From assembly GCA_045118635.1 (NCBI GenBank), contig JBGUYI010000052.1, forward strand, positions 1 to 41,411: a DNA stretch of 41,411 nucleotides, read 5' to 3'. The DNA comes from Acetivibrionales bacterium. GTDB lineage: Bacteria > Bacillota > Clostridia > Acetivibrionales > RGIG10202. Below are positions 12,388 to 28,369 of the stretch, in pieces; position 1 is the stretch's first letter, and each line of letters opens with the position of its first letter. Made by a program: the position numbers and the translations under genes. The notes beneath the pieces were generated by a model. The model did not search any database. It had not been told where the DNA came from and saw nothing but the letters and a program-made list of their open reading frames with translations.

Positions 12388-12424
12388 GAAACCGTAATTT
12401 TTTTTAGAAAGTAGGTTGGTTTTT

Positions 12425-13375
12425 ATGAAGAAAGGATTTTTGAAGGCTTTATGTTTGGCAGGAGTATTAGCTTTTACAATACCAGTAGTAGGTTATTGTG
12501 ATAATGTAAGTTATGAGAAAGAAAGTGTAGTTTTAGATGATGAACAAAGACACAAGGAGATTTTTTGGACACTATCAGGAAACGACGTGGAAGAAGTAAA
12601 AGCTCTGATAGAAAATGGAGTAGATGTGAATGTTAGAGATGAGTATAATTTTACCCCATTGCATTATGTGGATAATGTAGAAGTAGCAAGAATACTAATA
12701 GAAAATGGAGCTGATGTGAATGCGCAGGATGATTTAGCAGGATCTACTCCATTACATTGGGCGGCAAATGTGGAGATAGCAAAATTATTGATAGCGAATG
12801 GAGCCGATGTGAATGCTAAAGATGGTTGGGGATATACTCCATTACATTGGGTGGCAAATGTAGACATAGCAAAATTATTGATAGAAAATGGAGCCGATGT
12901 GAATGCTAAAGCTGGTGATGTAGATACTCCATTACATTGGGTGGCAAATGTAGACATAGCAAAATTATTGATAGAAAATGGAGCCGATGTAAATGCTAAA
13001 GGTTTTGTGGGAAAAACTCCATTGCATTGTACGGAGGATGTAGAGATAGCAAAAGTATTAATAGAAAATGGAGCCGATGTAAATGCTAAAGATAATTGTG
13101 AATGTACACCATTACATTGTGCAGAAAATGCAGAAGTAGCAAGAGTATTAATAGAAAATGGAGCTGATATTAATGCTAAAAACAATCGTGGAGAAACTCC
13201 ATTGGATTATATGGAGGATACAAAGGATGCATTGAATTATGAAAGGAAGACAGAGATTATAAAAGTATTGGTAGAGTATGGGGCTGGCGAAATAAGTATT
13301 GAACAATTTACAAAAGACGAACAACTTTTTAATGCCGTAGAAAGTAATGATTTAGGAAAAGTAAAGGGGCAATAA
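12425..13375 (+). CDS. Secreted or membrane-anchored ankyrin-like repeat protein (30-aa repeats), interrupted at its 3' end
   Basis: Signal-peptide-like N-terminus MKKGFLKALCLAGVLAFTIPVVGYC. Tandem units are of the type TPLHW.ANV.IAKLLIENGADVNAK. The stop at 13373 lies inside a repeat unit. Confidence 0.8.
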   Translation: MKKGFLKALCLAGVLAFTIPVVGYCDNVSYEKESVVLDDEQRHKEIFWTLSGNDVEEVKALIENGVDVNVRDEYNFTPLHYVDNVEVARILIENGADVNAQDDLAGSTPLHWAANVEIAKLLIANGADVNAKDGWGYTPLHWVANVDIAKLLIENGADVNAKAGDVDTPLHWVANVDIAKLLIENGADVNAKGFVGKTPLHCTEDVEIAKVLIENGADVNAKDNCECTPLHCAENAEVARVLIENGADINAKNNRGETPLDYMEDTKDALNYERKTEIIKVLVEYGAGEISIEQFTKDEQLFNAVESNDLGKVKGQ

Positions 13376-18300: not shown

Positions 18301-20130
18301 TTGAAGGTCTTTAGGTGGAGCAACTTTAAAGATATTAAAAATACAATATTTGGAGTAGTAATAATTTTTATTTGTTTGTTTGATTTGAGAGTGTATGCAG
18401 ATAAGACAGATGTAAAAATAAAGGCTTTTGATGTATCATCGACATCGAATGTGCAAGAAATATATAGAAATAGTGAAGCGACCAAGTACAAGATAACATT
18501 GTTAGATAAAATAATATATAAGGTAACGGATATGAATGGTGAAAAAATAACACCAGAGCAATTAAGTGGAAAGAGTGTATTGTTTAGTAATAATGGTTTA
18601 AATAAAGTAAGAGTTTATTCAAGTAGTTCAAATTATGAGGTGGTGGATTTAGAAAGCGATGAGGTAATGGTAGATATAACTTCTCCTAAAGTTTTGTGGA
18701 AGTATAAAAATAATGGAGATAATTTGTTGTGGCTTGAGATAGAAGATGAATCTGGATTATATGAAATAAGAAAGAACAATCAAGTAGGGTCATTGAGGAC
18801 CATTTTTACGGGTATGCAAAAAAAAGCGATATTAAGTATAGAGTTAGCAGAAGGGGAAATTTTAGAGAGATTAGAAATAAGTGATATATTTGGTAATACG
18901 GAAGTTATTGAGGTATCAGAAATAACATTGAATGTAGTAGAGGCTTTTAAAAATACTAATGGTAGTGTTATTGTGTTGAAATTAAATGATTCTGAAAACA
19001 ATATAACAGGTTTAGAATATTTAGATGGAACAGAAATAGAAAGTGTTTCGGGAACAGATTTAGAAAAAACATATAATGTTGCACCAGGAACAACCAAAAT
19101 AAAAGTTAAATTTGGTGATGAATATGCAATAATACAACTTGACACAGATGCAAAGTCTCCAGAGATAGTAAGAGTATGGAGAAAAGGAGACAATAGCAGA
19201 ATGTTGTTAGAAACTAAAGATTATGAAAGTGGTGTAAAGAAGATAGCGTTTTATAATAAGAGTACGAAAAACGAACAGGTGTATAAGGAGTTTGAAGGAT
19301 TACATATAGGTGGAGTTTCACAGTATGATATTATGGAAGGGGCAACACATTTATATGTGTATGATGGTGTAGGTAATAGAACTAAAGTGGCAATGACTTC
19401 AATAGGAGTAGATGATGAAGGACCAGTAATTGTGGTAAGATATAAAGATGGCAAGTATATAATGACAGTAAGGGAAGAAAAGTCAGGAATTGATACAGTG
19501 AGATTAGACGGAATTGATGTAGATACATATATAGATTATCCTGCAGGAGAGTTTGTATATACATATGATGATTTAAATGGTGATTCGTATATAACTGCAT
19601 CTGATGGGCTAGGTTATGCTGTGAGTCTTACTGTAGATGAGGCAATTAGCATAAGAAATAGAATATATAAGAATGATCAAGGTGATATTATATCAATTAA
19701 GTTAGAAGATGATAGAGGGATACAAAAAATTACGGATCAAGATGGAAATATAATAGAGAGATTTTTGCTAAATGAAAAAGAAATTAGTGGGGTTTATAAA
19801 GTAAGGAGTGATATAGATAGTATAAAAGTATTTTACCAAGATAATAAATGTTATAATATAAGATTGCAGGAGCTTAGTGAAAAACCTCAAATTTCAAATG
19901 AAGTATATGATGATGAATTAATTACTGAGTGTGTGGTTTCATCAAAAGCTGGAATAAAGAAAATAGAATATAGAGATGGTAGGAGTATTGAGTTTAAAGA
20001 GAATATACCAGATGATATAATTGTAAATTGTACAGAATTGAATGATGATAGTTTGGTTGTACCTGCATTTGTTACAGTATATGATGCATTGGATAATAGT
20101 GTTAATATAAATGAAAGTTTGATGGATTAG
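18301..20130 (+). CDS. Secreted protein with about six tandem Ig-like/beta-sandwich modules
   Basis: TTG start after AGGGGGAG, with a signal-peptide-like N-terminus. A recurring motif (D/E).SG(I/L/V).KI appears about every 90-100 aa: EDESGLYEI, YESGVKKIAF, EEKSGIDTV, DDRGIQKI, SKAGIKKIEY. Confidence 0.65.
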   Translation: MKVFRWSNFKDIKNTIFGVVIIFICLFDLRVYADKTDVKIKAFDVSSTSNVQEIYRNSEATKYKITLLDKIIYKVTDMNGEKITPEQLSGKSVLFSNNGLNKVRVYSSSSNYEVVDLESDEVMVDITSPKVLWKYKNNGDNLLWLEIEDESGLYEIRKNNQVGSLRTIFTGMQKKAILSIELAEGEILERLEISDIFGNTEVIEVSEITLNVVEAFKNTNGSVIVLKLNDSENNITGLEYLDGTEIESVSGTDLEKTYNVAPGTTKIKVKFGDEYAIIQLDTDAKSPEIVRVWRKGDNSRMLLETKDYESGVKKIAFYNKSTKNEQVYKEFEGLHIGGVSQYDIMEGATHLYVYDGVGNRTKVAMTSIGVDDEGPVIVVRYKDGKYIMTVREEKSGIDTVRLDGIDVDTYIDYPAGEFVYTYDDLNGDSYITASDGLGYAVSLTVDEAISIRNRIYKNDQGDIISIKLEDDRGIQKITDQDGNIIERFLLNEKEISGVYKVRSDIDSIKVFYQDNKCYNIRLQELSEKPQISNEVYDDELITECVVSSKAGIKKIEYRDGRSIEFKENIPDDIIVNCTELNDDSLVVPAFVTVYDALDNSVNINESLMD

Positions 20131-25100: not shown

Positions 25101-26054
25101 ATGAGAAAAAAATTTTGGTTGATAGCGTTTATGTTCTCGTTCTTGATGATTTTTACAGGTTGTAATAATAATACGTCGCCTTATGCGGATATTAAAAAAA
25201 ATGAAGTTACAAAGGGGAAAACAGATAAGTTAGAGTATAATATAGCAAGCGTAAAAACAACTAAAAAATTTGATTTAAAGAGTGTTCCTAAGTATTCCAA
25301 TAAACCATATGTTATTGTAAATAATAATATGCCGTATTTTGAACAAAATGACATGACAACTGAGTCTTTCGAAAAATATAGTTCGCTTGATTCGTTAGGA
25401 CGTTGTGGAGTTGCGTTTTGTAATGTCGGAGTGGATATTATGCCAACTAAAGAGCGTGGAAGTATTGGAATGATTAAACCTTCAGGATGGCATACTGTAA
25501 AATATGATAATGTAGATGGGAAATATTTGTATAATCGTTGTCATCTTATAGCTTTTATGCTTTCAGGAGAAAATGCAAATGAAAAAAATCTAATTACGGG
25601 AACTAGATATATGAATGTTGATGGTATGAATCAGTTTGAGATTAAAGTGGCGGATTATGTAAAAAGAACAAACAATCATGTTTTGTACCGTGTAACACCT
25701 ATTTTTGAAGAGAAGAATCTTTTGGCAACCGGTGTATTAATGGAAGCGTTTTCTGTAGAAGATAATGGCAAAGGTATATGTTTTAATGTGTTTTGCTATA
25801 ATGAACAACCGGGTATAAGTATTGATCATTCAAATGGTGATAGTAAAGCTATAGAAAAAGAAAAAAAGGAAGAGAAACAGAAAAATGAGCCAAAAGAAAT
25901 ATCATATATAGCAAACAAGAACACAAAGAAGTTTCATTATCCATTTTGTCAAGCAGTTGGAAATATGAAAGAAAAGAATAAAAAACAGCTAAAGTGTACT
26001 AGAGAACAAGCTATTCAGCAAGGATATAGTCCATGTGGTATTTGTAAACCATAG
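25101..26054 (+). CDS. DNA/RNA non-specific endonuclease lipoprotein (EndA/DNA-entry nuclease-like) with C-terminal Cys4 motif
   Basis: Lipobox IFTGC. The nuclease core is LDSLGRCG...YNRCHLIAFMLSGENANEKNLITGTRYMN. The C-terminus is KFHYPFCQ...GYSPCGICKP. Confidence 0.75.
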   Translation: MRKKFWLIAFMFSFLMIFTGCNNNTSPYADIKKNEVTKGKTDKLEYNIASVKTTKKFDLKSVPKYSNKPYVIVNNNMPYFEQNDMTTESFEKYSSLDSLGRCGVAFCNVGVDIMPTKERGSIGMIKPSGWHTVKYDNVDGKYLYNRCHLIAFMLSGENANEKNLITGTRYMNVDGMNQFEIKVADYVKRTNNHVLYRVTPIFEEKNLLATGVLMEAFSVEDNGKGICFNVFCYNEQPGISIDHSNGDSKAIEKEKKEEKQKNEPKEISYIANKNTKKFHYPFCQAVGNMKEKNKKQLKCTREQAIQQGYSPCGICKP

Positions 26055-26110
26055 AACTGATTTTGAACGTCTTTTTTAACAAATATTGGCAAAAAGGGAG
26101 AAGGAGAAAA

Positions 26111-26599
26111 ATGGAGATAATACTAAAAAAGAATTTATTTAAATTAGTGAATAGATATAGTGTAATGGATTCTAATGGAAATAATATTTTGAGAGTAGAA
26201 AAAAGATTGATGTCTATGTTTAATACTTATGTAGTAATGGATTTAACAGATAATTATATTTGTGAGATAAAAAGAAAAATGTTAAGTGTTTTTCCTAATT
26301 ATAGAATATTTTTTAAGAGTGGTAGGGTTATAAATGTAAAAAAGCATACAGGTTCAATAAAGAAAAAATTTAGTGTTATAGAAGAAGGGGAGGAATATTT
26401 TATAGAAGGGGATGTTTTGGAGAATATGTTTAATATAAAAAAGGGAGGAGAAGTTTTTGCATCTGTGGAGAAAAAGGTTATAAATATGTTAAAAGTGTAT
26501 GATATTAAAACAAAAGAAATAAAAAGTATTCCAACTATAATATCAATTATTGTAGCGCTGGATATTATAAAGTATAAAAAACTTGCATATTTGATTTAA
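26111..26599 (+). CDS. LURP-one-related (DUF567/tubby-like fold) family protein
   Basis: About 160 aa with patterns such as Y.V.D..GN.I..V.......F..Y.I. GGAGAA RBS before the ATG at 26111. Confidence 0.5.
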   Translation: MEIILKKNLFKLVNRYSVMDSNGNNILRVEKRLMSMFNTYVVMDLTDNYICEIKRKMLSVFPNYRIFFKSGRVINVKKHTGSIKKKFSVIEEGEEYFIEGDVLENMFNIKKGGEVFASVEKKVINMLKVYDIKTKEIKSIPTIISIIVALDIIKYKKLAYLI

Positions 26600-27075
26600 G
26601 TAGAGTAAATAACTTGACAGTTCCCCATGCTTAAAATCAGGGGATTCACACTAGCTTGTCACTTAAGTTGACTGGGCAGTCCATTTCTGGTAGCCCGTAC
26701 TGTGTGGTGTGGGTGTGCCATCACCCTTCCTACGACAGGACATATAGTCTCGTAGGCAGATGTACTGTTACCATACATCCTAGGCTCTTGCTAGTCGGTG
26801 TATATTTTACGCATAATCCTTTATTATGCAACCTCATATATACAATTGTCAAAGGACCTCAATATTATGTTAGTATTTATAGTGCAGACGACTTCTACAC
26901 TGTAGCGTTTTTAGGACTTGTTCTTGTCCGTACAATTAAGTACAATGATTTTATAGACTTGTTTCTGTCTGTATATGCATTTTATCATGCGGATATAGAA
27001 TTAACAAGAACTAATTTGTTGCCTTATATCCCCATATCTAAAGATAGGGGCTTTACGGCAAATGGGGGTAAATAA
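26600..27075 (+). ncRNA. Candidate large structured non-coding RNA (unassigned family; strand tentative)
   Basis: GC spike: about 50-53% over 26641-26760 by hand count. The only ORF is compositionally aberrant.
Helices: 26647-26655/26790-26800 encloses hairpins at 26658-26672, 26674-26696, 26711-26726, 26729-26756 and 26759-26779. Further helices are 26811-26817/26823-26829, 26914-26917/26926-26929, 26930-26933/26940-26943, 26952-26958/26967-26973, 26977-26980/26987-26990, 26991-26997/27025-27031 with inner 27003-27007/27016-27020, and 27030-27050.
A possible closing helix pairs 26623-26630 with 27058-27067. The U-G pair 26954/26971 favours the + strand. Confidence 0.5.
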
Positions 27076-27119
27076 CGTAAAAATATTGTAAAAAAAATGT
27101 AAAATAAACTTAAAATTTC

Positions 27120-27148
27120 TTGAAATAATTAGTGGATGCTGATATAGT
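27120..27148 (+). promoter_or_regulatory. Sigma-A type promoter of the BMP/nucleoside ABC transporter operon
   Basis: TTGAAA (27120-27125), 17-nt spacer, TATAGT (27143-27148). Confidence 0.65.
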
Positions 27149-27193
27149 AATAGAGGAACAAGTAATGCGTTTTAAAAGGAGGATGAAGTAAAG

Positions 27194-28369
27194 GTGAGTT
27201 CAAACTTTAACGATGGTGGTTTTATCAACAAAATGCGATTATTTTTTAAGAGCAGGAGAAATCTGAGAATTTTGGGGGGGCTAGGAATATGTATAGGGTT
27301 AATTTTATTATTTAATGTAATAAATGATGATGTTAACCCAGAGGATGTAGTAACTGGAAAGAATTTGAGAGGAAAAGGAATTAAAGTAGGTATAGTTTTG
27401 TCAGGGAAAGGAAAGGGAGATAAAAGTTTCAATGATTCTGCCATAGAAGGATTAGAAAGAGCTAAGAGAGAACTTGGAATAACCTATAAAGATATCGAGC
27501 TAAAAGAGAATTCCGAAAATATAGACGCTTTAGCATTTTTAGCGCAACAAGATTTTGATTTGGTAATAGGTGTGGGTTTTTCAATTGTGGATGTTTTAAA
27601 AGAAACTGCTATAAAATATCCAAATGTAAAGTTTGCGCTTGTGGATGCATCATATCCTGATGGAGAGGTTCCAAATAATGTAGGACTAGTGTTTAAGGAT
27701 AATGAAGGTTCATATTTAGCAGGTGTTTTGGCTGCGGAAATGTCAAAAACAAAAAAAGTTGGATTTATAGGTGGCATGGAGTCTCCAGTAATTCAAGGAT
27801 TTGAAGGTGGATTTACAGCAGGAGCAAAATCAGTTAAAGGGACAGAGGTTTATACAGGGTATGTTGCGTCAAATCCGTCTGGATTTACTGACCTAGATAA
27901 AGGAAGAGAGTTGACACTTGATTTTATTTCAAGAGGAGTAGATGTAGTGTATCATGCCGCTGGTGCAACAGGACAAGGTGTATTTGATGCAGCTGCTTCA
28001 AAAGGGATAAAGGCTATAGGAGTGGATTCTAATCAAAATTATGTGAAGCCAGGAGTAATTTTAGCTAGTATGTTAAAGTGCGTAGATGTTGCTGTATATG
28101 AAGTTTGTGAGGATGTAGTAGATAAGAAATTTGAAGGTGGTATAACAAAAACATTTGGTCTTGCTGATGGAGGAGTAGGACTAACAGATTTATATAATTT
28201 AACAATAGAAGAAACAGAAGGTGTATCTAAAGAAGATGAAGAGAAAATAAAGGCACTTAAAGATTCAATACCAGTTGAAATTAAAAGAAAGATAGAAAAA
28301 GTAAAAGAGGATATTATATCAGGTAAAATTGTGGTTCCCAATTGGAAAATTGAAGGGAAACACGAGTAG
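27194..28369 (+). CDS. BMP-family (PnrA/Med-like) ABC transporter substrate-binding protein
   Basis: The segment KVGFIGGMESPVIQGFEGGFTAGAK and the overall BMP-family sequence. GTG start 11 nt after AAGGAGG. It has an N-terminal membrane anchor. Confidence 0.8.
   Translation: MSSNFNDGGFINKMRLFFKSRRNLRILGGLGICIGLILLFNVINDDVNPEDVVTGKNLRGKGIKVGIVLSGKGKGDKSFNDSAIEGLERAKRELGITYKDIELKENSENIDALAFLAQQDFDLVIGVGFSIVDVLKETAIKYPNVKFALVDASYPDGEVPNNVGLVFKDNEGSYLAGVLAAEMSKTKKVGFIGGMESPVIQGFEGGFTAGAKSVKGTEVYTGYVASNPSGFTDLDKGRELTLDFISRGVDVVYHAAGATGQGVFDAAASKGIKAIGVDSNQNYVKPGVILASMLKCVDVAVYEVCEDVVDKKFEGGITKTFGLADGGVGLTDLYNLTIEETEGVSKEDEEKIKALKDSIPVEIKRKIEKVKEDIISGKIVVPNWKIEGKHE

Follow-up and report, generated by a model that had tools for sequence, protein, structure and literature searches.

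What is the GC-rich, highly structured island that lies between the LOR gene and the BMP operon in otherwise AT-rich DNA? The original prediction was that about 470 nt of this region (26600-27075) form a large plus-strand RNA resembling OLE, ROOL and GOLLD. We analyzed the whole 41,411-nucleotide stretch (hereafter the window) and conclude that positions 26614-27067, read on the minus strand, are very probably a 454-bp non-autonomous IS200/IS605 element (a PATE) that has IS608-type ends and an omega-RNA scaffold in its core and that inserted recently. PATEs with omega RNAs are a described class (PMC10055086), and the island is not an orphan class of large RNA.

Several parts of the original prediction were borne out. 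G+C content was 0.51 at 26650-26799 compared to 0.20-0.32 in the flanks, and the 476-nt region folded more stably than shuffled sequences on both strands, with z-scores of -3.5 (plus) and -4.5 (minus). The region is also non-coding, as had been proposed: we found no Pfam match for the product of its open reading frame, and the region is absent from sister alleles.

Ends and insertion site of the element

The element and its ends are listed here in the order in which they are read on the minus strand, after the element as a whole and followed by the overlapping reading frame.

26614..27067, minus strand: the whole PATE (very probable), without a protein gene; from alignment to the empty alleles L058 and L059, the IS608-like element L003, and the sister PATEs L054, L056 and L060
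27068..27071, minus strand: TTAC, the left cleavage and target site, in the flank, next to the left end of the element and 17 nt from its hairpin; predicted TnpB TAM, TTTAC
27051..27054, minus strand: AAAG, the left DNA guide tetranucleotide (GL), directly 5' of the left hairpin foot, read from the sequence
27030..27050, minus strand: left subterminal imperfect palindrome (IPL), CCCCTATCTTTAGATATGGGG, a predicted TnpA binding hairpin; from motif search and direct repeat
26644..26647, minus strand: GAAT, the right DNA guide tetranucleotide (GR), directly 5' of the right hairpin foot
26623..26643, minus strand: right subterminal imperfect palindrome (IPR), CCCCTGATTTTAAGCATGGGG; direct repeat of the left hairpin, and motif search
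26614..26617, minus strand: TCAA, right cleavage site, with which the element ends, 9 nt past the right hairpin foot
26656..27075, plus strand: open reading frame of 139 amino acids, not a gene; no Pfam family, and running antisense through a mobile element that sister alleles lack

The boundaries of the element were sharp. In alignments with the two empty alleles, the IS608-like element and the three sister PATEs, divergence of the flanks fell exactly at 26614 and 27067. The element is 3' of a TTAC site, and both IS ends are present with no protein-coding gene between them. We searched for TnpA and TnpB by tblastn and found neither tnpA nor tnpB in the 41-kb window. Because there is no tnpA inside the element, we classed it as a non-autonomous derivative and not as an autonomous IS. 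A tRNA/tmRNA scan of the window gave a single match, a distant tRNA-Arg.

The two subterminal hairpins were recognized both by motif and by repetition. The end-hairpin motif had two matches in the window compared to 0.01 expected, and the left (27030-27050) and right (26623-26643) hairpins are a direct repeat of the form CCCC...GGGG, 407 nt apart. The left-end motif of the PATE is GCCGTAAAG followed by the hairpin, and the right-end motif is GAAT, the hairpin and TGTCAA. The Y1 transposase (TnpA) uses such hairpins, guide tetranucleotides and cleavage sites in single-strand "peel and paste" transposition. These assignments account for two structures in the original prediction. Its hairpin at 27030-27050 is the left-end hairpin (no formal covariation test), and the pairing of 26623-26630 with 27058-27067 that was thought to close the whole domain gives way to a local hairpin at 26623-26643.

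The layout of the ends agreed base for base with that of L003, an IS608-like element encoding tnpA and tnpB, and was close to that of IS608 of Helicobacter pylori (IS200/IS605 family, IS605 group). As in IS608, insertion is 3' of TTAC and the element ends in TCAA, both ends have subterminal imperfect palindromes with a bulged T, and the guides AAAG and GAAT are at the hairpin feet (PMC3201880; PMC5934647). The spacing differs slightly. The IS608 cleavage sites are 19 nt from the left hairpin (CL, TTAC) and 10 nt after the right hairpin (CR, TCAA) (PMC3201880), whereas the window has TTAC at 17 nt and TCAA ending at 9 nt. The IS608 guides have been reported as AAAG for GL (PMC5934647, PMC3201880) and GAAT for GR (PMC5934647).

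Conservation among relatives was strongest at the right end. GAATC and the terminal TGTCAA were each invariant in all 37 homologues, with sequences differing immediately beyond TGTCAA, and the right-end stem (helix 7) covaries across the family. The right hairpin in the window has one A.G mismatch (26637/26630), which we count against our main reading. At the other end, the target was TTAC in six other family copies and TCAC in L054.

A stretch of 39 nt around the left hairpin matched Helicobacter and Alicyclobacillus phage records at 90-95% identity. In L003, the single such record examined, the matched stretch is the left end of the IS608-like element. We had considered a group II intron domain V for these short, highly conserved phage matches, and dropped it because the phage match is this left end, located beside tnpA and tnpB.

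The insertion is recent and is represented by both occupied and empty alleles. By exact look-up of the BMP protein we found two metagenome contigs (L058 and L059) that encode an identical BMP protein and have precise empty sites; an exact look-up of the LOR protein from its TTG start returned no record. The LOR-BMP spacer is 594 nt in the window and 131 nt in the empty alleles, and the difference of 463 nt equals the 454-bp element plus 9 bp. The additional 9 bp are a direct repeat that flanks the element.

26605..26613, plus strand: left copy of the 9-bp direct repeat GTAAATAAC, present in two copies in the window and one in L058 and L059
27068..27076, plus strand: right copy of the 9-bp direct repeat GTAAATAAC, from alignment to the empty alleles

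This duplication is atypical for the IS200/IS605 family. IS608 inserts "without DNA gain or loss" (PMC3201880), and there was no duplication at seven other family copies. Each junction in the window, taken singly, is canonical, and yet the duplication is there. We rejected the possibility that the repeat is part of the element because, in every other copy, divergence starts immediately beyond TGTCAA. Read on the minus strand, the repeat exactly fills the interval between two adjacent TTAC sites (27077-27080 and 27068-27071), which suggests two events and not a different mechanism. Repeated targeting of the two TTAC sites followed by recombination between alleles may have generated the duplication. 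An empty allele with a tandem GTTATTTACGTTATTTAC, if it existed beforehand, would be a trivial explanation.

Relatives of the element were few. L054 and L056 are full-length relatives from Lachnospiraceae MAGs, and L060 is a 3'-degenerate relative on a metagenome contig; all three have unrelated flanks, and together with the window they make up the four family members found. L060, which is similar to L056, was the one additional copy from a metagenome scan with a PATE-family pattern, which found no further copy of the window element. Our automatic search for left ends across loci succeeded for some loci only. There were no matches to the exact right-end hairpin in 185,579 species-representative genomes, indicating that the source species, or this PATE, is unrepresented among them.

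The omega-RNA scaffold in the core

The GC-rich core corresponds to a TnpB guide-RNA scaffold on the strand opposite to that originally proposed.

26614..26781, minus strand: TnpB omega-RNA (reRNA) scaffold; from covariance model R1, covariation and homology

The scaffolds of omega RNAs (reRNAs) of IS605-family elements overlap the 3' end of tnpB and the right end of the element (PMC10055086), and 26614-26781 is homologous to these same parts of TnpB-encoding elements from Bacillales and Clostridia. Matches to the core found by blastn were under the 3' ends of genes annotated as "RNA-guided endonuclease TnpB" on Bacillus plasmids. We found the core motif at 52 genome loci, 17 of which have a reading frame of 368-479 amino acids that ends 27 nt upstream, and the five neighboring ORFs that we tested contain OrfB_IS605 and Cas12f1-like TNB domains (Pfam).

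A covariance model (R1) trained on 16 TnpB-linked copies only recognized the core in the window. The match, at 26614-26781, covered the full span of the model with a score of 91.3 bits (E = 4.8e-22), was on the minus strand only, and was the sole match in the window. Scores across the family ranged from 62 to 205 bits, placing the window near the low end.

The scaffold is conserved as a structured RNA. In an alignment of 37 homologues, compensatory changes were found in 29 of 40 base pairs. The proportion of paired cells was 96%, compared to 75% in shuffled alignments (none of 500 reached the observed value) and 31-43% in slid controls, and the covariation score was 0.55, compared to 0.16 and 0.05-0.10, respectively. 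G-U pairs were frequent on the minus strand, and the core alone folded with a z-score of -4.0 on the minus strand versus -2.0 on the plus strand. The copy in the window has kept 75 of the 78 highly conserved columns and 36 of the 40 pairs, and its sole paired difference is a compensatory change from U-A to A-U. PATE-type orphans make up roughly half of the family copies, and their structure is intact, with no broken pairs in most, which argues for selection on the RNA in copies without a gene.

Many of the hairpins in the original prediction were recovered in this structure, read on the other strand. Its hairpin at 26759-26779 corresponds to the covariation-supported helix at 26758-26780, those at 26729-26756 and 26711-26726 are helices that covary among the homologues, and that at 26674-26696 contains an invariant stem (26677-26689). 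The hairpin at 26658-26672 matches a stem of the Clostridia clade with arms that vary between copies, as judged by inspection of the alignment (no formal covariation test). The architecture was different. Positions 26647-26656 pair by covariation with 26698-26706 and not with 26790-26800, and the conserved G-U pairs are those of the minus strand, not of the plus strand that had been proposed. Conservation as RNA extends over about 170-190 nt and not about 470 nt; the remainder is transposon-end DNA and decayed tnpB sequence.

The original prediction could assign the region to no known family, and database scans agreed. There was no relevant match in an Rfam 15 scan of the window at the gathering score, and nothing relevant in a scan of 26400-27300 at E-values up to 10. 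Canonical relatives were also blank against Rfam 15, and the window scan was blank because this omega-RNA family is absent from Rfam 15. The possibility that the element had already been described was correct at the level of the class and not by way of Rfam. Since the family is not in Rfam, such GC-rich, well-folding intergenic islands in AT-rich Firmicutes can be expected to go on being flagged as novel large RNAs. The R1 model and alignment, together with the IS608-type end motifs, recognize them at once.

Remnants of tnpB and sites upstream of the scaffold

The interior of the PATE aligns to a decayed, partly deleted 3' region of tnpB, and contains two hairpins and two sites that might contribute to expression of the RNA.

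26907..26929, minus strand: tnpB-derived hairpin, copy 1, GGAC-AAGAACAA-GTCC then TAAAAAC; from blastn
26948..26970, minus strand: diverged hairpin, copy 2, AGAC-AGAAACAA-GTCT then ATAAAAT; direct repeat D5, 41-nt spacing
26823..26852, minus strand: candidate promoter TTGACA-18-CATAAT facing the omega RNA, matching 11 of 12 consensus positions
26804..26829, minus strand: 7-bp hairpin GCATAAT/ATTATGC, then G and TAAAAT, conserved among the PATEs a short distance upstream of the RNA

Copy 1 of the hairpin was 90-95% identical (blastn) to a segment of tnpB that codes for TRTSRKN, and its stem has compensatory changes between lineages. Copy 2 is an insertion relative to the sister PATEs, which are about 410 bp compared to 454 bp for the window. 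The concern that the region might be a degraded protein gene finds an echo in the interior, which contains a recognizable tnpB coding fragment. Conservation in homologues follows base pairing and not codons. The hairpin module could act as a signal in the expression or processing of the guide RNA. The retained hairpin and the 9-bp duplication are small details that may interest specialists in IS200/IS605 elements and TnpB.

We looked for a promoter that might drive the omega RNA. The candidate at 26823-26852 is tentative because the sister PATEs do not share its -10 element. In the hairpin at 26804-26829, TGCGTAAAATAT was invariant in all four PATEs and the stem changed in a compensatory manner, from AAT/ATT to CTA/TAG. 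The TAAAAT or TAAAAC that follows is conserved, with C in the last position in Bacillales copies, and does not have a good -35 element. One possibility is that this hairpin supplies an alternative -10 element, another that it signals processing. The promoter scan and the comparison of sister PATEs revealed no convincing conserved sigma-70 promoter for the omega RNA, and a terminator scan of 26000-27600 found none.

The predicted guide and competing explanations

The sequence beyond the right end of the element has the properties expected of an omega-RNA guide. It differs in every copy, and the invariant TGTCAA followed by divergence is the predicted boundary between scaffold and guide.

26594..26613, minus strand: predicted omega-RNA guide in flank DNA, GTTATTTACTCTACTTAAAT, placed by the known layout of omega RNAs (PMC10055086)

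The predicted guide and the LOR stop codon, which is on the opposite strand, overlap, and the guide sequence is found in the empty allele immediately after TTTAC. The TAM of IS605-family TnpB proteins is the transposon target motif (PMC10055086), and PATEs "often encode omega RNAs" that need TnpB in trans (PMC10055086). We predict that the PATE is mobilized in trans, with TnpA supplied from another part of the genome, and that a minus-strand RNA of about 190-210 nt is transcribed, containing the scaffold (26781-26614) and a guide of 16-20 nt copied from the flank (GTTATTTACTCTAC...). Loaded into the TnpB of another element, this RNA might direct cutting of the unoccupied allele at a TTTAC TAM followed by the guide match, and recombinational repair from the occupied copy would then restore the PATE, as in the homing model for IS605-family TnpB.

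Three alternatives place the function of the region outside of a transposon, and we find each hard to accept. A cis-regulatory leader or riboswitch, or an antisense regulator that evolved for the LOR or BMP genes, would fit the location between those genes and the fact that the predicted minus-strand RNA is antisense to the last LOR codons. We consider it very unlikely, given that the promoter-like site for BMP (27120-27148) is outside the element, as the original prediction had noted in arguing that the region is not the leader of the BMP operon, that sister strains have the same genes without the element, and that its relatives are in unrelated contexts. The plus-strand RNA of about 450-470 nt with an unassigned cellular function, as originally proposed, is extremely improbable. 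The stability of the plus-strand fold, the blank Rfam scans and the GC-rich island within AT-rich DNA are all consistent with it, but the R1 match, the G-U pairs and the better z-score favor the minus strand; conservation as RNA is limited to about 170 nt; the closing helices of the original prediction clash with covariation-supported pairs; the element has canonical transposon ends; and it is missing in sister strains in which the neighboring gene is identical. That the region is a real protein gene seems to us virtually impossible. An open frame of 139 codons does exist, but its product belongs to no Pfam family, the frame is antisense to a transposon and missing from the sister alleles, and conservation among the homologues tracks base pairing.

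A different alternative accepts the identity of the PATE and holds that its omega-RNA part is an inert passenger, left over from a deleted tnpB element, unexpressed and unused by any TnpB. There are neither TnpB nor TnpA in the window, no conserved sigma-70 promoter was found, the window scores low with R1 for a member of the family, there is a mismatch in the right-end hairpin, and the interior is visibly decayed and partly deleted, all of which favor this reading. However, the copy in the window retains nearly all of the conserved positions and pairs, its one paired difference is compensatory, about half of the family copies are orphans with mostly no broken pairs, and the insertion is recent. 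We regard an inert passenger as possible and unlikely. We propose, tentatively and with considerable doubt, that gene-less PATEs have a selected "guide-only" lifestyle and are not deletion debris, parasitizing both the TnpA and the TnpB of autonomous relatives. Related to this proposal, the PATE lineage in Clostridia and Bacillales keeps an intact omega-RNA scaffold. The lineage also keeps the tnpB-derived module, consisting of a stem, the AAGAACAA loop, the closing stem and TAAAAAC, and the stem covaries.

The PATE in the window combines features of several known systems. Unlike IS608, it has neither tnpA nor tnpB, is flanked by the 9-bp duplication, and has a scaffold of a Firmicutes TnpB lineage (the IS608-like L003 is not matched by R1). 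Among known PATEs, gene-less ISGst-like elements have been described in Geobacillus stearothermophilus (Meers et al., PMC10055086), and others in Haloquadratum (PMC3119063). The window element resembles known PATEs in its IS200/IS605 ends, the absence of a protein gene, the presumed mobilization in trans, and an omega RNA that would need the TnpB of another element. Its family differs from them in sequence, having IS608-type ends and a Clostridia-clade scaffold, and has kept the tnpB-derived hairpin, which is present twice in this copy. Like omega RNAs of the IS605 family (e.g., that of ISDra2), the scaffold has multiple helices with strong covariation and stops at the transposon boundary, with a predicted guide derived from the flank beyond it; unlike the ISDra2 type, it is not beside tnpB and its sequence family is not in Rfam 15. 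OLE, ROOL, GOLLD, raiA and HEARO are similar in being GC-rich, multi-helix, non-coding islands in Firmicutes-like genomes, whereas the element here is mobile, is on the opposite strand, has a much shorter conserved RNA, and has no Rfam match. HEARO is the counterpart for IscB and not for TnpB. The occupied and empty alleles of this locus are a natural pair for a guide-RNA-only transposon, with a predicted TAM (TTTAC) and a predicted guide.

Transposon ends and insertion of the element

The ends of the element, as read from the sequence, are transposon ends with the published features of IS608. In a repeat search, two similar 28-nt stretches (26622-26649 and 27029-27056) came up as direct repeats; each is a CCCC...GGGG hairpin, a motif that occurs twice in the window versus 0.01 expected. 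Using blastn against phage records, we found that 27021-27059 was 90-95% identical to Helicobacter and Alicyclobacillus phages, and that in Helicobacter phage Pt11509_1 the matching stretch was just upstream of a tnpA-tnpB pair. The phage element and the minus strand of the window have a common layout: TTAC, 17-19 nt to AAAG, a hairpin, and then, at the other end, GAAT, a hairpin, and ~9-10 nt to TCAA. In IS608, TTAC and TCAA are the cleavage sites CL and CR, AAAG and GAAT are the DNA guide sequences GL and GR, the hairpins IPL and IPR are the binding sites of the Y1 transposase TnpA, and insertion is 3' of TTAC (PMC3201880, PMC5934647).

Features of the element and its flanks

27071-27068, minus: TTAC
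27067 to 26614, minus: whole element
27054-27051, minus: AAAG
27050-27030, minus: IPL (left hairpin)
26647-26644, minus: GAAT
26643-26623, minus: IPR (right hairpin)
26617-26614, minus: TCAA
26907-26929 and 26948-26970, minus: tnpB-derived hairpin module, two copies
26605-26613 and 27068-27076, plus: 9-bp direct repeat GTAAATAAC, present once in empty alleles

The hairpin at 27030-27050 in the original prediction is the left-end hairpin. The proposed closure of the whole domain by 26623-26630 and 27058-27067 is not supported; it would pair one half of the right-end hairpin with the bases that begin the left end. In the window copy, the left-end hairpin is perfect and the right-end TnpA-binding hairpin has one internal A.G mismatch (26630/26637, minus), which could lower mobilisation.

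The element is a recent insertion that is polymorphic for presence and absence. In two ENA metagenome contigs (L058 and L059), the encoded BMP protein and that of the window are identical and the neighbouring genes are the same, and the spacer between the LOR gene and the BMP operon is 131 nt in these contigs versus 594 nt in the window. The empty site is clean in the alignment (L058:2870-3000, L059:686-816), and the 463 nt that it lacks are accounted for by the 454-bp element and one further copy of GTAAATAAC.

Insertion of IS608-type elements normally neither gains nor loses target DNA (PMC3201880), and a flanking repeat was absent in seven other copies of the family. On the strand of the element, the empty site is TTTTTAC/GTTATTTAC/TCTAC, which reads as two TTAC targets spaced by 9 nt; what lies between them is precisely the duplicated 9-mer. 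At its left junction the element thus looks as if it had inserted after the second TTAC, and at its right junction as if it had inserted after the first. We infer that the repeat arose when two alleles with independent insertions, one at each TTAC site, recombined by a crossover inside the element. Alternatively, the arrangement could have arisen if the right end was cleaved aberrantly at the next TTAC and the element then reinserted.

A TnpB omega-RNA scaffold on the minus strand

The original prediction of a GC-rich, structured region was borne out. The G+C content is up to 0.51 in 26650-26799, compared to 0.20-0.32 in the flanks, and the 476-nt region is more stably folded than its dinucleotide shuffles, with z of -3.5 on the plus strand and -4.5 on the minus strand. 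The 139-codon ORF in the region matched no Pfam family.

Several lines of sequence evidence indicate that the GC-rich core is the scaffold of a TnpB omega RNA (guide RNA). By blastn, the core matched more than 130 Bacillus plasmids, and many of the matching stretches overlapped the 3' end of a gene that carries the annotation 'RNA-guided endonuclease TnpB family protein' and follows tnpA; the alignment runs from the final tnpB codons to a common TGTCAA. Searching species-representative genomes with a pattern made of two invariant blocks gave 52 loci, often several in one genome, in hosts that include Exiguobacterium, Virgibacillus, Aneurinibacillus, Ectobacillus, Tissierellia, Lachnospiraceae, Eubacterium, and Oscillospiraceae. 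At 17 loci, a reading frame of 368-479 aa ended exactly 27 nt before the pattern, and all five of the neighbouring ORFs checked had OrfB_IS605 and Cas12f1-like TNB domains; 16 loci with sufficient upstream sequence had no such ORF. In every copy the sequences diverge immediately after a terminal TGTCAA, as expected for the boundary between scaffold and guide in an omega RNA.

We built a covariance model (R1) from 16 TnpB-linked copies only, leaving out the window and all orphans. R1 had a single match in the window, to the full model (26614-26781, minus strand, 91.3 bits, E 4.8e-22), a score near the bottom of the range across the family (62-205 bits). The window copy retains 36 of 40 pairs and 75 of the 78 columns with conservation of at least 90% among the other copies, and two of the three differences make up one compensatory pair (U-A to A-U).

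The structure is supported by covariation. From 37 aligned copies (alignment A2), RNAalifold predicted 40 pairs, 29 of them with compensatory changes. The proportion of paired cells was 96.0%, compared to 75.2% in shuffles (0 of 500 reached the observed value) and 31-43% with slid partners, and the covariation score was 0.55, compared to 0.16 in shuffles and 0.05-0.10 in slid controls. Several pairs are mostly G-U on the minus strand (e.g., columns 46/54 and 92/110) and would be A-C on the opposite strand, indicating that the RNA strand is the minus strand of the window. The folding of the GC-rich core 26620-26830 (z of -4.0 minus versus -2.0 plus) and the R1 match also favour the minus strand, contrary to the plus-strand assignment made originally. 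Apart from the strand, the predicted hairpins at 26759-26779, 26729-26756, and 26711-26726 are covariation-supported helices, and that at 26674-26696 corresponds to one in part. The hairpin at 26658-26672 is a stem of the Clostridia clade whose arms vary between copies on inspection of the alignment, and is outside the counted structure. The proposed 9-bp closing helix (26647-26655 with 26790-26800) is not supported; 26647-26656 pairs instead with 26698-26706.

The omega-RNA family is uncurated in Rfam 15, including its canonical TnpB-linked copies, so the Rfam check proposed earlier would return blank. At the gathering score, the whole window matched nothing except a tRNA; 26400-27300 gave nothing relevant at E up to 10; and the copies scanned (L004, L006, L010, L027, L055, and L056) had zero matches.

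Origin of the gene-less element and its internal hairpins

The element is a palindrome-associated transposable element (PATE) without protein genes, and it shows the features tested for a PATE and for an omega-RNA scaffold. Lacking a tnpA, it does not qualify as an autonomous IS, and no homologues of TnpA or TnpB were found in the 41-kb window. In its ends the element is closest to IS608, in its architecture to PATEs, and in its RNA to the TnpB omega RNAs of the IS605 family. PATEs 'often encode omega RNAs', which depend in trans on the TnpB of other elements (Meers et al., PMC10055086). Two loci in Lachnospiraceae MAGs (L054 and L056) align to the window over the entire element, from TTAC/TCAC to TGTCAA (mean column identity ~75%), with unrelated flanks on both sides. 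The copy in a metagenome contig (L060) matches from its left end to a point within the scaffold; over the last ~90 nt, right-end hairpin included, it has diverged. None of the three has an ORF. These sister PATEs are ~410 bp; small insertions, among them an internal duplication (D5) with 41-nt spacing, bring the window copy to 454 bp.

The element is a deletion derivative of a tnpB-carrying element, because it retains a 22-nt segment with 90-95% identity to the TRTSRKN-coding stretch of tnpB (~312 nt upstream of the core motif), and most of what lies between that segment and the scaffold is deleted or decayed. The Clostridia-clade elements L010 and L055 have the same type of left end before tnpB, and no tnpA.

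The tnpB-derived segment forms a hairpin module: a stem, the loop AAGAACAA, the closing stem, and then TAAAAAC. The originally proposed 'two copies of a two-hairpin module' are a real duplication, of this hairpin. It is also found in L054, L056, L060, L015-L018, L017, L037, L043, and L053, and inside tnpB of L010, L031, L049, and L055. The stem is CGAC/GTCG in tnpB, GGAC/GTCC or AGAC/GTCT in Clostridia PATEs, and CGTC/GACG in Bacillales PATEs. Retention of the hairpin, with compensatory stem changes, in gene-less elements of three lineages suggests a role at the RNA or DNA level, e.g., in guide-RNA expression or processing. A perfect 7-bp hairpin (26804-26829, minus), followed by G and TAAAAT, precedes the first scaffold helix by ~23 nt; TGCGTAAAATAT after the hairpin is invariant in four of four PATEs, and the stem change is compensatory (AAT/ATT to CTA/TAG).

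Predicted mobility and other observations

Based on the established IS200/IS605 mechanism, TnpA supplied in trans would excise and insert the element as single-stranded DNA. The predicted minus-strand RNA would consist of the scaffold and a guide of ~16-20 nt from the flank (GTTATTTACTCTACTTAAAT, 26613-26594), and TnpB supplied in trans would, by its established mechanism, bind this RNA. In the empty allele, the same 20 nt directly follow TTTAC, making TTTAC the predicted target motif (TAM). The complex would cut the empty allele there, and repair from an occupied copy would keep or spread the element. A candidate promoter-like site, TTGACA-18-CATAAT (26852-26823, minus), matches 11 of 12 consensus positions in the window copy and is not conserved.

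The omega-RNA family is multicopy within genomes, with 8 copies in one Tissierellia MAG and ~10 in Bacillales bacterium MGYG-HGUT-00079 (including loci L006, L007, L015, L016, L018, L028, L029, and L033). The loci in Tissierellia MAGs are L009, L011, L013, L024, L026, L041, L042, L048, and L057, and these copies are at contig ends. Among the copies examined in multicopy genomes, the sequence after the right end, and hence the guide, differs for each copy. An orphan scaffold without tnpB on Bacillus thuringiensis plasmid p150790 (L001:3946-4131; 79 bits, 10 broken pairs) adjoins IS6-family and IS5-family transposases and was probably truncated by an IS6 insertion.

Elsewhere in the window, a 609-aa ORF (18301-20130, plus) matched no Pfam family at E up to 1e-4. 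Ankyrin-repeat proteins are uncommon in free-living Firmicutes; 12416-13375 (plus) encodes one of 319 aa (Pfam Ank, E 4e-53).
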